Assembly: GCF_003019035.1 (NCBI RefSeq)
Contig: NZ_CP027447.1
DNA: 64,000 nt
Source of the DNA: Escherichia coli
GTDB taxonomy: Bacteria; Pseudomonadota; Gammaproteobacteria; Enterobacterales; Enterobacteriaceae
Reading direction: 5' to 3' (one strand)
This document shows, piece after piece, positions 22,801 through 28,800 of the stretch (positions are counted from its first letter, which is position 1; each line of letters opens with the position of its first letter). A program made the position numbers.

Positions 22801-25800
22801 CGGATATCCGTCTACAAAGCGAAAAATCGCTAACCGACTTCTTTGCACCATTACGCTCTGTCCCGTCGTTGCAGATTGGTCGCCTGGAAGTCATCGACGC
22901 TCGTTTGCAAGGTCCGGACTGGGCGGTGACCGACCTCGATCTCAGCTTGCGCAACATGACCTTCAGTAAAGATGACTGGCAGACACAGGAAGGCAAACTG
23001 TCGATGAACGCCAGCGAGTTTATTTATGGCTCGCTGCATTTATTTGATCCGATTATAAACGCGGAATTTTCCCCGCAGGGCGTAGCACTGCGCCAGTTCA
23101 CCAGCCGCTGGGAAGGGGGCATGGTCAGAACGTCAGGGAACTGGTTGCGTGACGGGAAAATGTTGATCCTCGATGATGCGGCAATTGCCGGACTGGAATA
23201 TACCTTGCCAAAAAACTGGCAACAGTTGTGGATGGAAACGACACCCGGTTGGTTAAACAGCCTGCAACTGAAGAGATTTAGCGCCAGCCGCAATCTGATC
23301 ATTGATATCGACCCTGACTTCCCGTGGCAGCTCACCGCGCTCGATGGTTACGGTGCCAACCTGACGCTGGTTACCGATCATAAATGGGGCGTCTGGAGTG
23401 GTTCGGCGAATCTGAATGCCGCCGCCGCGACATTCAATCGTGTTGATGTTCGTCGCCCATCGCTGGCGCTGACCGCCAACAGCAGCACGGTGAATATCAG
23501 CGAACTGAGTGCATTTACTGAAAAAGGCATTCTGGAAGCCACCGCCAGTGTTTCACAAACGCCACAACGTCAGACCCATATCAGCCTGAATGGACGCGGT
23601 GTGCCGGTGAATATTTTGCAACAGTGGGGATGGCCTGAATTATCGTTGACTGGCGACGGCAATATTCAGCTTACCGCCAGTGGCGATATTCAGGCCAATG
23701 TCCCGCTGAAACCTACGGTTAGCGGGCAATTGCATGCCGTGAATGCCGCAAAGCAGCAAGTGACTCAAACCATGAATGCGGGCGTAGTTTCCAGTGGTGA
23801 AGTTACGTCGACGGAGCCGGTGCAGTAAAAATAAGGACGCTAGCGGATATCAGCGCTAGCGTTCCCCGTTATTAGCGCAAAATTCCATACTCACTGCACA
23901 ATAACCATTTCACCGGTTCATCTTCTTCTATCGCCGGAAAACGTCCTCCCGGCTCAAGAAAATAGTTATCGTGTTGGTCATCATTTACCATCGAGATTTC
24001 CCAGCCGAGAACAAACGCTTTTTCCGCCCAGAAGCGATGATACAGACGCGGCGGCAGGCAAATGCCCTGCCCCGGCTTTAGCACCAGCGTTTCACCAGGT
24101 TTCATGGTACGCCGCTGACCATCAACACTCACGGTAATGACTCGTTGATCATCACAGAGATTGGCTTCGTTGGCCCAGGCCAACTGCATGCATAAGTCTC
24201 CACCGCCCCGATTGAGGATATCTTCCATTTTGTGGGTGTGAAAATGCCAGGGAGTCTGCTGATCTTGTTGGATCTGCAACATTTTCTCAGCATACGGTTT
24301 TGGATATGCCGCCGCCCCCAGCGCGCCGTTGCGCATCGTTAGCAGTGTTAGTCCCGTTTGGTTGAAATCACCACGACCAAAATCGGTGATATCCCAACCG
24401 AGCTGTAAGTCGACCACTTCTTGCCAGTTATCCCGTTCCCGCTGCAGCCAGTCATCCACCGTAAAATAGGCGAACTCTGGCAAACAAACGCGGAAGGTCT
24501 GCGCAATGGCATGTGCTTTATCAATAACATAATTAATTTGTGAACGTTTCATTGGCTTCTCCGTTGCGCATAGCAAGCCAGGCAGCGCCACGCATTCCGC
24601 TACTGTCGCCGTGCTGTGCTTTTACAATGGGAGTGGTGAATTGATCGGTGAAAACCAGTGGAGCAACTTCTGCGTTCAGATCGGTGATAAGCAGTTCCAC
24701 ATTCGAAAGCCCGCCGCCGATCACAATCACGCCAGGGTCAACAACGTTAACGATGGTTGCCAGCATGCGGGCAAGCTGTTGGCGAAAACGTGCCACCTGC
24801 TGCATGGCACAAGCATCACCACGTTGTGCCAGGGTGACAATCGCCGCAGGAGTGAGCAAGTTACCAGTCATCTGTTGATAGCGTTCACTAAAACCGCTGC
24901 CGGAAACAAACGACTCCACGCAGTTGTGTTTGCCGCAATAGCAACTGACTGATGGACCATCTTCCTGCTCCATATAGCCTGGCAACGTGATATGACCGCA
25001 TTCGGCAGCATTTCCCCAGGCCCCTATAAACGGTCGTTGCTTGATGGCAATGCCACCGCCGCAGCCCGTACCAAGCGTAATACCAAATACCACGTCATAA
25101 TCTTGCCCGGCACCGTCGCAAGCTTCTGATAGCGCGAAACAGTTACCATCATTGGCTATCACCACCGGTTGCCCAAGCAATTGCTGCAAATCAGCCTGTA
25201 ACGCATGACCGTTAATCACCTGAATATTCGCGTTTTTAATCAGGCCAGTGAGTGGCGAGATACTGCCGGGTAAGGCGATCCCTGTCAGCATCGGTCGTTG
25301 AACGTCCCGCCTAATCTGCTCGATAAGCGCCACAACGCATGAGACAAATTGTTGATATGTCGACTTTTGCGTCGGGCAGCGGTAACGGCGAATCTCCCAG
25401 CCATGCGCATCCATGACGACGGCGGCGATTTTGGTCCCACCAATATCCAACCCCAGATAGTGCATATCTCGTTCCTTGTTGCGTAAAAGGCGGGTCACCC
25501 CGCCCTTCTGGCTTAGTACAGTGATGCTTTACCGAGCGAACCGAACAGTTTCATTTTGTGGCGAATGACTTCCCGCGCCGCGTTAATCGCATCCGGATAG
25601 ATGACGTTCGGGTCCCACCAGCTCTCTTTAGCGAGAATTTCACGCACTTTCTGGAAATAGGCGTATTTCATATCGCTGGAGATATTGATTTTGCCGACGC
25701 CGAGCGTAACTGATTCAGCAATCTCCGCGTCCGGGTTTGCCGAACCACCGTGTAGCACCAGCGGAATATCAATACGTCCGGCAATGTCGCGCAAAATGTC

Positions 25801-28800
25801 CATTTGCAGCTTCGGCTGCATCCCTTTTGGATAGATGCCATGCGCTGTACCAATCGCCACAGCCAGAGTGTCGGCACCTGTACGAGCAATAAAATCGGCG
25901 GCCTGCGCCGGATCTGTGTAGGTCACTTGTGAAACACCACCTTCTACCGACGTTCCTGTTTGTCCGATGGTTCCCAGTTCACCCTCAACCGACACTCCAA
26001 CCGCGTGAGCGAGGCGAACCACTTCTGCGGTCAGCGCCACGTTTTCTTCATACGGCAGCAGCGAACCGTCGATCATTACTGAGGTAAATCCGCAGCGAAT
26101 CGCACGCAAAACATGCTCTACAGAGGCACCATGATCGAGGTGCAGTACAAACGGGACCGGACTACGCTGGGTAATTTCGCGAACGTGAGCGAAAAAGGCA
26201 TCGCCCACAAAATCATGTTCGCTGGGATGGATGGCAATAATCGCCGGAGTATTTGTCGCTTCTGCTTCATCCACGACTGCGCGAAGGAAACAGTTATCCG
26301 CCACATTAAATGCGCCAATGGCAAAGCCGTGCTGGCGGGTAGGTTGCAGTAATTCTTTCATCGAAACTAACATGTTAAATCTCCAGTTTCAGCGTGTAGT
26401 CCGCCCTGCCGGTGCGTTATTGCACTGGCATAAAGGCCATGACAGAAAATGAATCAGGCTTTGCCGATAGAGCCGCTCGCCTGTAAATACGGTGTAATCG
26501 CTTCTTCGAAGGCCAGTTCCATAGCTTTCAGCGCGTCCACCAGTTCAATGGATATATCGTGACAGAGGGTATGCAGGAGCGCGGATTTCCCCCGTTCAAA
26601 AATGGCCGCCCCCACGTTGATTTTTGCTACCCCCAGCGTCGTACAGAGCTGGAGCTGATCGAACGGCGTACCGCTACCGCCATGTAATGCCAGAGGCACG
26701 CTCGAGCAGTGGAAAATCTCCGCCAGACGCTGAAAATCAATAGCAGGTACAACACCAGGCGCGTACATGCCGTGCGCCGTGCCTACCGAGACGGCCAGTA
26801 GATCAATGCCTGTCTGCGCGATAAACGGTTCCACATCAGTGGGTTGCGTCATCAGGTCTGCATTGGCGGCCTGGTCGTAACGCGGCGCATCTGCCAGATG
26901 GCCCAGTTCGCCTTCCACGCAGAGCTGCACGCTGGCGGCGAGTTCCACCACCGCCCTGGTCTGGCGCACGTTTTCCTCCAGGGGAAAAGCAGAAGCATCA
27001 ATCATTAATCCGCTGAAACCAGCACGAAACGCCTGACGAATACAGTCCGGATTTTTGCCATGATCAAGCGCCAGAGCGACCGGTACTGAGGCAGATTCCG
27101 CGAGCGTTTTAACCACTGCCGCCGCGACGGGTGCAGGAAAATGCGCCAGATGCCCCTGATAGAGATTGAGAATGATCGGAGCGCGATTCTTCTCCGCCAC
27201 GCGGATAGCTGCGTGAGCACTTTCCAGATTCATACAGTTGATCGCCAGTAAGGCGTAATGTTCATGCCAGGCTTTCATCACCATACTTTTCATATCGGCA
27301 AACATAGGGCCTCCGGTTATTCGAGGGTGAAAGTGATCTCTTCATCTTTCAGCTTTTGATCGCTCAGTTCGTCAAACTCTTCGTCGCGTTCCGTTACCGG
27401 TTTCTTCCAGAGTGAAAGCATCACGCCACAAATCACCGTGCCTATACCCAGCGCCAGGCAAAACAGCAGAGGATGGGTGAACAGAGGCACAACAAACATG
27501 CCGCCATGCGGAACCGGACTCTCCACGCCCCACACCATGATTAAGCCGCCCGCGACCGCCGATGCCACCACACAAGATCCCACTACTCTCAGCAGGTCAC
27601 GCGCGGCGATCGGAATGACTCCTTCAGTGATCATGCAGATCCCCATCGGAAACGCGGCTTTCAGCGCCTCGCGCTCCGCACGGGTGTATTTATGGCGTGT
27701 CAGTAAGAACGAAAGTGTGATGCCAAACGGAGGGATGATTGAGCCGACAAATTTCACGGCTTCTGGTCCGTAGACGCCACTGACCAGCAAGCCATCGGAA
27801 AACAGCGACATGGTTTTGTTGACCGGACCACCGAAATCGAAGGTTGCCATCGCGCCAAGTATGGCCCCCATCAGGAAGCGCGATCCGCCCTGCATCGACT
27901 CGAGCAAATGAATCAGTGCTTCTTGTAACCAGGCGATGGGTTTACCAATCAGCGTCATCATTAACAGCCCACCGATAATGGTGCTTAATACCGGCAACAC
28001 CATGATTGGCATGAGTCCTTGCATCGACTGCGGCAGGCGGATATAGCGTTTAAGTAGCAAAATGGTGTAGCCCACCAGGAAACCACCCAACATACCGCCA
28101 ATAAATCCGGTATGGATTTGCCCACAGAGAAAGCCGACAATCAGACCCGGGGCAAATCCGGGACGATCGGCAATAGAATAGGCAATTGCCGCGCTAATCA
28201 GCGGCACAATCAGCCCCATTCCCCAGCCGCCAATCTGATTAAGCATCCACGGGATTGTTCCTGTTTTTTCACCAACATCTGTACCGCCAAGAACTTGCCC
28301 CAACGCAATACATATCCCGGCGGCCACAATAAGGGGTATCATCCACGAGATGCCGGTTAATAAATGTTTTTTAATTTCCTGTGAAACCGGAATTTTATTG
28401 TCTTTCATATTAAGATCCCTCCAGTATAAGGATCATTTGTTTCCCAGTGATTTTTCGACCTTTTCAAGAAATTGAACGGGCGATTTAATGACGATCTCTG
28501 TCTTTACTCGCACAATACGTTTATTGGTGAAGCGTTCTTCTCCTTTTATTTTCACATCTACAGCAAGAATCACGACGTCAGCAGCAGAGATATCTGCCGC
28601 CTGTAATTCATTTTCTGTACCAATGGTTCCCTGGGTTTCAACTTTAATGGTATGGCCCAGAGCTTTTGCTCCTTTGATTAACTTTTCACGAGCAATATAG
28701 GTATGAGCAATACCCGCCGTACAGGCGGCAACACAGACAATATTCATGACATACTCCCTGTTATTTAGCAGACATCGGATTGTGCATACTGACTAAAGAG

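Follow-up and report, generated by a model that had tools for sequence, protein, structure and literature searches.

We describe a pair of aldolase genes in a stretch of 64,000 nucleotides of the Escherichia coli chromosome (RefSeq contig NZ_CP027447.1, assembly GCF_003019035.1). The whole stretch that was analysed is called the window. The gene order is recG, gltS, xanP, yicH, a cluster of eight genes on the minus strand, yicI and yicJ. A RefSeq record that is 100% identical to the window has the same eight genes between yicH and yicI. Two of the eight encode class II aldolase-family proteins, named here ALD1 (25513-26373; 286 amino acids, aa) and ALD2 (26454-27305; 283 aa). Both are co-directional with a BglG/Mga-type regulator and the IIA, IIB and IIC components of a phosphotransferase system (PTS). 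The 100%-identical record names them 'ketose-bisphosphate aldolase' (ALD1) and 'class II fructose-bisphosphate aldolase' (ALD2). The original prediction, made from the sequence of the window alone, had placed two adjacent class II aldolase genes with the signatures LDHG, TAHG and HGGS in a PTS operon, and this is borne out, well above chance, with exact coordinates and end-to-end matches to PF01116.

By its position next to yicH and yicI and by its gene content, the locus is identified as frz, an operon already published from extraintestinal pathogenic E. coli (ExPEC). Rouquet et al. 2009 (J Bacteriol 191:4427) are said to have described this operon in the ExPEC strain BEN2908, and their abstract reportedly already mentions 'two type II ketose-1,6-bisphosphate aldolases'. 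The frz gene list, which we take to comprise a fructose-family PTS, a Mga/PRD-type regulator, two class II aldolases, a ROK kinase and a cupin, is that of the present locus. Locus and gene set are the same, and structurally there is no difference. In PMC12928451, which cites Rouquet et al. 2009, frz is a carbohydrate operon of 7,227 bp with a promoting effect on fitness, adhesion and internalisation, and the length found here, about 7.0-7.1 kb, matches this figure. A cluster of ~7.1 kb with at least 95% identity is present in 1606 of 5426 complete E. coli genomes (~30%), UTI89 included, and is nearly always complete. For extraintestinal E. coli of birds and humans it has repeatedly been listed among the factors of fitness and colonisation. 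Literature searches for later biochemistry of frz gave only reviews and genome papers. The aldolase pair itself is already known, from frz and from its RefSeq annotation.

Fold and family membership

Both proteins cover the PF01116 (F_bP_aldolase) profile from position 1-2 to 277 of 277, with 304.8 bits for ALD1 and 253.7 bits for ALD2 against a cut-off of 25.5. The family motifs read LHLDHGAS, IGTAHGIY and LVLHGGSA in ALD1 and LALDHGKN, VGTAHGMY and LALHGGSG in ALD2. PF01116 is the sole Pfam match of ALD2, without any match to PF08013, and ALD2 is thus not a member of the GatZ/KbaZ family.

The more specific models fit less well. ALD1 passes only two NCBIfam models, NF006042 (525.9 bits, cut-off 405) and TIGR00167 'ketose-bisphosphate aldolase' (259.5 bits, cut-off 215.6), both of which are subfamily models. 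ALD2 stays under the cut-off of every NCBIfam model, TIGR00167 included. The equivalog models of fructose-bisphosphate aldolases (FBA) and tagatose-bisphosphate aldolases (TBA) are all failed by ALD1: TIGR01859 (270.7 bits, cut-off 343), PRK12857 (279, cut-off 423), GatY (246.7, cut-off 383), KbaY (184.3, cut-off 542) and TIGR01858 (229.2, cut-off 443.6). ALD2 scores lower than ALD1 on every one of them, and the shortfalls of the pair span 70 to 350 bits.

AlphaFold2 returned confident models for ALD1 (pLDDT 87.7, pTM 0.88) and ALD2 (pLDDT 89.7, pTM 0.90), doubtful only in two loops (pLDDT below 50) that are mobile in solved enzymes too. Foldseek aligned both models, the C-terminal helices of ALD2 covered, to 3Q94, 7NCC, 1GVF, 8Q59, 6OFU and 2FJK with TM-scores of 0.86-0.93. 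Each protein is thus predicted to be a (beta/alpha)8 barrel with a C-terminal helical arm, like the class IIb aldolases.

Two lineages rather than a tandem duplication

ALD1 and ALD2 share 32-33% identity and are no nearer to each other than to GatY, KbaY and YdjI (31-36%). In a neighbour-joining distance tree of 31 sequences, the ALD1 orthologues form a clade (92% bootstrap) that is nested with the sole aldolases of PTS operons (100%). The ALD2 orthologues form a separate clade (93%), the sister of single PTS-linked aldolases from Erysipelotrichia and Clostridia (100%). The low identity and the separate clades indicate that the pair was formed by joining two long-separated lineages and not by tandem duplication. 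Each lineage can evidently work alone, judging from these single relatives.

The nearest relatives of ALD2 and ALD1 are single class IIb aldolases that lie beside PTS genes in Firmicutes and metagenome contigs (L076, L084, L093-L095 and L010:621-1532). Their operons differ from frz in having one aldolase instead of two, and in accessory genes such as iron-dependent alcohol dehydrogenase (Fe-ADH), DUF1537 kinase and FGGY kinase. In L093 a single ALD1-like aldolase and a fructose-type PTS are combined with a lyxose isomerase and an FGGY kinase, and in L095 with a DUF1537 kinase; the single ALD1-like aldolase of L096 belongs to a glucose-type PTS operon that also encodes an Fe-ADH. Single ALD2-like aldolases are accompanied by a short-chain dehydrogenase/reductase (SDR), an RpiB-like isomerase, an Fe-ADH and a DUF1537 kinase.

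A shared core and divergent substrate side

The residues of the active site were read from an alignment of ALD1 and ALD2 with GatY, KbaY, YdjI and FbaA of E. coli K-12 (NC_000913), in which the literature numbering of FbaA was verified on the sequence. The roles of the class II core residues are described elsewhere (PMC11194214, PMC10665668). The three zinc histidines (FbaA H110, H226 and H264) are H81, H178 and H208 in ALD1 and H82, H178 and H208 in ALD2. The catalytic Asp (FbaA D109) is D80 and D81, and the buried-site Glu (FbaA E174) is E132 and E133, respectively. The dihydroxyacetone-phosphate (DHAP) site residues N35, K284 and N286 of FbaA are N23, K228 and N230 in both proteins, which also share the phosphate site G209-G210-S211. 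The zinc, Glu, Asp and DHAP-site residues are invariant in 73 orthologues each of ALD1 and ALD2, the set to which all statements on invariance below refer. As read from the alignment, the metal and DHAP site is intact in both proteins.

The distal side of the pocket is different. In FbaA (R331) and in GatY and KbaY (R257), the distal phosphate is bound by an Arg of the partner subunit. This Arg is absent from the pair, with N256 in its place in ALD1 and V256 in ALD2. Across the orthologues this column is Asn in 73 of 73 ALD1 sequences and A, V, P, S, D or F, never R, in ALD2. The same column is F or L in YdjI, depending on the alignment, and Ala in the sulfofructose-1-phosphate aldolases (PMC10665668). 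In the mobile loop, where the alignment is uncertain, the Glu-Asp of the canonical enzymes (GatY/KbaY E142-D143; FbaA E182) is replaced by G140-T141 in ALD1 and P141-R142 in ALD2, and ALD1 has a nearly invariant Glu, E144, a few residues past the canonical column. The loss of both the distal-phosphate Arg and the loop Glu-Asp makes the annotated bisphosphate substrate doubtful for either protein. The name 'bisphosphate aldolase' that they now carry is probably too narrow.

There are also conserved residues that are particular to each protein. The beta2-alpha2 loop contacts the distal group in related enzymes, through Ser49 in the FBA of H. pylori and Gln51/Lys52 in SqiA (PMC10665668). In ALD1 it carries the motif H49-P50-x-E52, which is specific to ALD1 and invariant; in ALD2 H52 is invariant and Q50 and H55 are nearly so. 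A single aligned column thus holds an invariant E52 in ALD1 and an invariant H52 in ALD2. The arm of ALD1 contains the motif W-D-P-N, in which W253, D254 and N256 are invariant and P255 is nearly so. Overall, 95 positions are invariant in ALD1 and 47 in ALD2; 31 of these are shared and cover the core, and others are family-specific.

The original prediction had named complete and identical sets of catalytic residues, together with activity of each protein on the same substrate, as the sign of a simple duplication. For the residues the outcome is divided: both proteins have the same complete core, and both lack the Arg and the loop Glu-Asp. Two further positions distinguish the pair. Residues 79 and 124 of ALD2 are Ala, where ALD1 (H78 and H123), GatY, KbaY and YdjI have His, and both His are invariant among the ALD1 orthologues.

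Conservation of the pair

A scan of a genome collection seeded with ALD2 orthologues gave 80 loci, to which three loci from direct look-ups were added, and the eight frz proteins were used as probes. An ALD2 orthologue with enough flanking sequence was present in 72 non-redundant loci. ALD1 lies immediately downstream of ALD2 in all 72, normally after the regulator, IIA, IIB and IIC genes. Eleven loci have no adjacent ALD1; in two of them the sequence ends right behind ALD2, and the other nine are the single-aldolase relatives. The pair is found in Citrobacter, Klebsiella, Kosakonia, Pantoea, Erwinia, Pectobacterium, Brenneria and Sodalis and, at 34-42% identity of ALD2, in Marinilactibacillus, Enterococcus, Pediococcus, Lactobacillus and Streptococcus.

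The genes that follow the pair are less constant. With a phmmer score above 100 bits taken to define a close homologue, a ROK kinase was present in 22 and an isomerase in 24 of the 72 paired loci: both genes in 13, the isomerase alone in 11, the kinase alone in nine and neither in 39. Some of these 39 loci hold distant versions. Judged by this gene content, the ROK kinase and the isomerase are dispensable, and the core of the operon is the regulator, the PTS and the aldolase pair. No PfkB kinase was met in the 72 paired loci, where the frz proteins and not PfkB itself served as probes, and none is listed in the gene tables of five loci.

Comparison with Citrobacter, Klebsiella and Phytobacter gave dN/dS ratios of 0.03-0.04 for ALD1 and 0.06-0.095 for ALD2, the signature of purifying selection on both genes. 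ALD1 has diverged about half as much as ALD2: identity to the E. coli proteins is ~80% versus ~59% in Pantoea and ~60% versus ~38% in Enterococcus. Most of the extra variability of ALD2 falls in two regions, the mobile loop (residues 141-160) and the C-terminal arm (241-260). The possibility that ALD2 is a pseudo-enzyme was rejected as the leading explanation given its invariant core ligands, a dN/dS below 0.1 and an invariant residue of its own. The picture of ALD2 is that of an enzyme whose site is under constraint of its own, rather than that of a copy in decay or of a partner with a purely structural role.

The divergence of the pair (separate clades, family-specific invariant residues) and its ordered retention in two phyla indicate more than a simple duplication, as had been anticipated. 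The further suggestion of two activities or a special partnership is reasonable for a pair that diverged and was kept together. The pair itself had already been described in frz.

Comparison with known systems

The GatY/GatZ and KbaY/KbaZ systems of E. coli are likewise PTS-linked operons that encode a class II aldolase and a second protein of the same fold. Identity to GatY and KbaY is ~35% for ALD1 and 32-34% for ALD2. The systems differ in several respects. ALD2 is a full member of PF01116, whereas GatZ and KbaZ belong to PF08013. ALD2 keeps three zinc histidines, and GatZ is described with two His and a Glu (PMC11907403). The R257 and the E142-D143 loop motif of GatY/KbaY are absent from both frz aldolases. 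Unlike the GatYZ and KbaYZ systems, the frz operon has no tagatose-6-phosphate kinase or 1-phosphofructokinase. The original prediction had set the GatZ/KbaZ partner apart as a protein of a different family. This is right at the level of Pfam, but GatZ and KbaZ are evolutionary relatives of the class II aldolases, with C4 epimerase activity (PMC11907403). Because of this relationship, paired aldolase-fold proteins are less unusual than had been assumed.

YdjI of E. coli K-12 (PDB 6OFU) is a class IIb enzyme that acts on a ketose monophosphate according to its RefSeq product name, L-glycero-L-galacto-octuluronate-1-phosphate aldolase, and it too lacks the distal-phosphate Arg. Its non-canonical mobile loop starts with ELGHVG, similar to ELGHLA in ALD2, and it joins the ALD2 clade with 60% bootstrap in the neighbour-joining tree. 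YdjI has 31-36% identity to the frz pair and differs in being a single aldolase, encoded in a cluster that has dehydrogenases and a PfkB-type kinase but no PTS.

The SqiA sulfofructose-1-phosphate aldolases (PDB 8Q57-8Q5A) are class IIb enzymes that have Ala257 in place of the partner-subunit Arg and whose substrate carries a distal group other than phosphate (PMC10665668). Their TM-scores to both frz models are ~0.9. They share 30-36% identity with the pair, belong to sulfoglycolysis and are single homotetrameric enzymes. PDB 8Q57 and 8Q58 were considered as a solved two-aldolase pair and rejected; they are sulfofructose-phosphate aldolases of two species and not partners.

The single-aldolase relatives form a recurrent and apparently uncharacterised type of operon, in which a PTS and one class IIb aldolase are accompanied by enzymes for unphosphorylated products (L093 30-4880; L095 646-6820; L096 2031-6870; L076 3832-13454). 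The PTS is of the fructose type in three of these four loci and of the glucose type in L096. The product enzymes are either a lyxose isomerase together with an FGGY kinase, or a DUF1537 kinase, or an Fe-ADH, or an SDR together with an RpiB-like isomerase. The distal-phosphate Arg is absent from the three aldolases of this type that were inspected, the L095 aldolase lying outside the alignment.

In a metagenome contig (L010, and also L011; 1-12300) a frz-like operon combines the aldolase pair with a ROK kinase and two isomerases, a short lyxose isomerase and a mannose-6-phosphate isomerase of type I. Immediately upstream of this operon are the genes of another regulator, of a lone ALD1-like aldolase and of a PTS with fused IIABC.

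Possible functions of the pair

We give even chances to the proposal that ALD1 and ALD2 have two different catalytic activities on PTS-derived ketose 1-phosphates, either as two specificities or as cleavage and retro-aldol/aldol epimerisation. The fructose-family PTS would deliver a ketose 1-phosphate, and the aldolases would cleave it directly to DHAP and an unphosphorylated aldehyde or aldose. The two proteins would be specific for two C4 stereochemistries or substrates, or one would cleave and the other epimerise by a retro-aldol/aldol reaction, with ALD1 as the principal and more constrained aldolase. C4 epimerase activity has been reported for GatZ/KbaZ, and for FbaA in vitro (PMC11907403). 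The ROK kinase and the lyxose/mannose isomerase, where present, would salvage the free sugar. With two different catalytic specificities the pair would not be one redundant activity. The accessory enzymes of the single-aldolase operons act on unphosphorylated aldehydes or sugars, which fits the proposed cleavage to DHAP and a free aldehyde or aldose.

Several points weigh against this proposal. The loss of a single Arg is no proof of a monophosphate substrate: a site for a second phosphate could be formed by other basic residues, and FruK of the host could supply the bisphosphate. Some fructose-family PTSs phosphorylate C6 and not C1. The monophosphate inference rests on one missing residue and the genomic context. 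The loop of ALD2 has no acidic residue that is conserved between Enterobacterales and Firmicutes, as far as the uncertain alignment of the loop can be read, and ALD2 could for this reason be a poor catalyst. A physical complex would account for the strict co-occurrence just as well as two separate steps would. The converse check, for ALD1 orthologues without ALD2, comprised an exhaustive representative search with context look-ups and covered four distant relatives; a word-indexed search for ALD1 homologues gave only close orthologues from the same taxa and was uninformative on this point. Finally, a review gives the function of frz as unclear (PMC8069529).

A more specific proposal is put forward only tentatively. 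ALD2 and ALD1 may form an obligate two-enzyme unit, as a mixed oligomer or as an aldolase with an aldolase-derived C4 epimerase, that converts ketose 1-phosphates to DHAP and a free aldose without a 1-phosphofructokinase. If true, this would be an undescribed route from the PTS to triose common to Enterobacterales and Lactobacillales, and a way to identify the substrate of an ExPEC fitness operon. The search for that substrate is narrowed by the missing second-phosphate site, by the two separate PTS-linked lineages, and by the fact that the aldolases and the PTS are the only invariant part of the module in two phyla; it points to ketose 1-phosphates that yield DHAP and a free aldehyde or aldose. 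The practical value is that of an enzymology lead for a known fitness operon, with no new principle and no new kind of system.

It is doubtful, if conceivable, that ALD1 and ALD2 associate in one mixed dimer or tetramer in the manner of GatY/GatZ, with ALD1 as the main catalytic subunit and ALD2 stabilising or modulating it. Such a hetero-oligomer would accord with the strict adjacency and order of the genes in 72 loci of two phyla and with the faster evolution of ALD2. The region in which ALD2 is most relaxed, besides the mobile catalytic loop, is the C-terminal arm, where ALD1 has its (nearly) invariant W-D-P-N motif; in solved homologues this arm region bears an Arg that reaches into the active site of the partner subunit (PMC10665668). 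Class IIb aldolases are obligate dimers or tetramers, and GatZ is reported to enhance tagatose-bisphosphate aldolase activity (PMC11907403). However, no result obtained here specifically favours association of ALD1 with ALD2. The invariant metal and DHAP ligands of ALD2, together with its own H52 (and nearly invariant Q50 and H55), are unexpected in a purely structural partner, and both clades include relatives that have no second aldolase in their PTS operon. The 80-nt distance between genes with their own ribosome-binding sites, without translational coupling, does not favour it either.

That both proteins are ordinary ketose-1,6-bisphosphate aldolases, with a host kinase such as FruK converting the PTS product to fructose- or tagatose-1,6-bisphosphate for them to cleave, is unlikely. 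The RefSeq names of both, the passing of the broad TIGR00167 by ALD1, the nearest solved structures (aldolases of fructose and tagatose bisphosphates) and the complete catalytic core are all in its favour. It is disfavoured by the absence of the distal-phosphate Arg from both proteins and from all 73 orthologue pairs, and by the failure of every FBA, GatY, KbaY and TBA equivalog cut-off. The lack of PfkB among the 72 paired loci (PfkB itself being no probe there) and in the five gene tables also counts against it. Redundant isozymes that arose by simple duplication and act on the same substrate would explain the identical core residues, but are very improbable given the 32-33% identity and separate clades (100% bootstrap), the different invariant residues on the substrate side of the active site, the retention of both genes in 72 loci despite ALD2 identities down to 34-38%, and the purifying selection on both.

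The operon and its expression signals

The features of the operon are collected in Table 1. The ROK protein is the sole kinase encoded; Pfam, NCBIfam and the RefSeq annotation reveal no PfkB-type 1-phosphofructokinase or tagatose-6-phosphate kinase in the operon. The nearest NCBIfam model of the ROK kinase is that of fructokinase, PRK09557 (317 bits, cut-off 443). The isomerase is a moderate homologue of the solved D-lyxose isomerase of E. coli O157:H7 (3KMH/3MPB), with 219.6 bits over 223 aa. An identification of the gene with Z5688 of O157:H7 (3KMH) was considered and dropped, since about 1 bit per residue denotes a homologue and a different protein. E. coli thus has at least two lineages of cupin isomerase. 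The hairpin past the isomerase gene is the probable end of the operon.

Table 1. Features of the aldolase operon, with positions in the window
Feature	Position	Strand	Evidence
ALD1, class IIb metal-dependent aldolase (predicted), slowly evolving partner	25513..26373	minus	PF01116; RefSeq WP_000961378.1 'ketose-bisphosphate aldolase'
ALD2, second class IIb aldolase-family protein, faster evolving partner	26454..27305	minus	PF01116; RefSeq WP_000457128.1
Spacer between ALD2 and ALD1, 80 nt	26374..26453	minus	GGAG ribosome-binding site of ALD1 and conserved palindrome
PTS EIIC, fructose family	27317..28408	minus	TIGR01427 311.6 bits (cut-off 157.55); PF02378
PTS EIIB, fructose family	28433..28747	minus	TIGR00829 100 bits (cut-off 76.85); PF02302
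PTS EIIA, fructose/mannitol type	28765..29235	minus	TIGR00848 127 bits (cut-off 103.5); PF00359
Regulator with HTH, Mga, two PRD and EIIB-like domains	29262..30815	minus	PF08279, PF05043, PF00874 (two stretches), PF02302; RefSeq 'BglG family transcription antiterminator'
ROK-family sugar kinase, optional accessory gene	24533..25465	minus	PF00480 248 bits
D-lyxose/D-mannose-family cupin isomerase, optional accessory gene	23872..24552	minus	PF07385 290.9 bits
Terminator-like hairpin and T-run just past the last gene	23837..23862	minus	9-bp stem, 6 GC pairs, tail CCTTATTTTT

ALD1 and ALD2 each have their own Shine-Dalgarno sequence, and with the gap between them this indicates that they are not translationally coupled. 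The spacer is conserved, with 85% mean column identity in nine enterobacterial genera, at distances where the synonymous sites of the flanking genes are saturated (dS ~1.5). It contains the palindrome TGCCAG-N10-CTGGCA in several genera. Its predicted RNA fold is no better than that of shuffled sequences (z = -0.78) and the covariation term is negligible (-0.09), and so an RNA element is not claimed. No internal terminator or promoter was found in the spacer, and the scan gave fewer promoter-like sites than shuffled sequences did. The conserved spacer may act as an operator at the DNA level or as a site of processing.

Other features of the window

The gene for tRNA-Sec (selC) lies at 35113-35207 on the plus strand and adjoins a fragment of a RhuM-family gene. 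selC is a classic insertion site of genomic islands. A block of low GC content (37-39%) at ~40400-46700 is annotated by RefSeq, in the record identical to the window, as the remnant of a type III secretion system, with eilA (a HilA-family regulator), a tip protein of the IpaD/SipD family, a translocon protein of the YopB/SseC family and a SycD/LcrH chaperone. In sharp contrast, the adjoining block at ~46700-59300 has a high GC content (61-62%); its genes code for proteins with Ig-like domains and for IatC, an inverse autotransporter adhesin that is frameshifted and incomplete according to RefSeq. At ~60950-61260 a RelE/ParE-family toxin gene, annotated as frameshifted, lies beside an intact HTH antitoxin-like gene.

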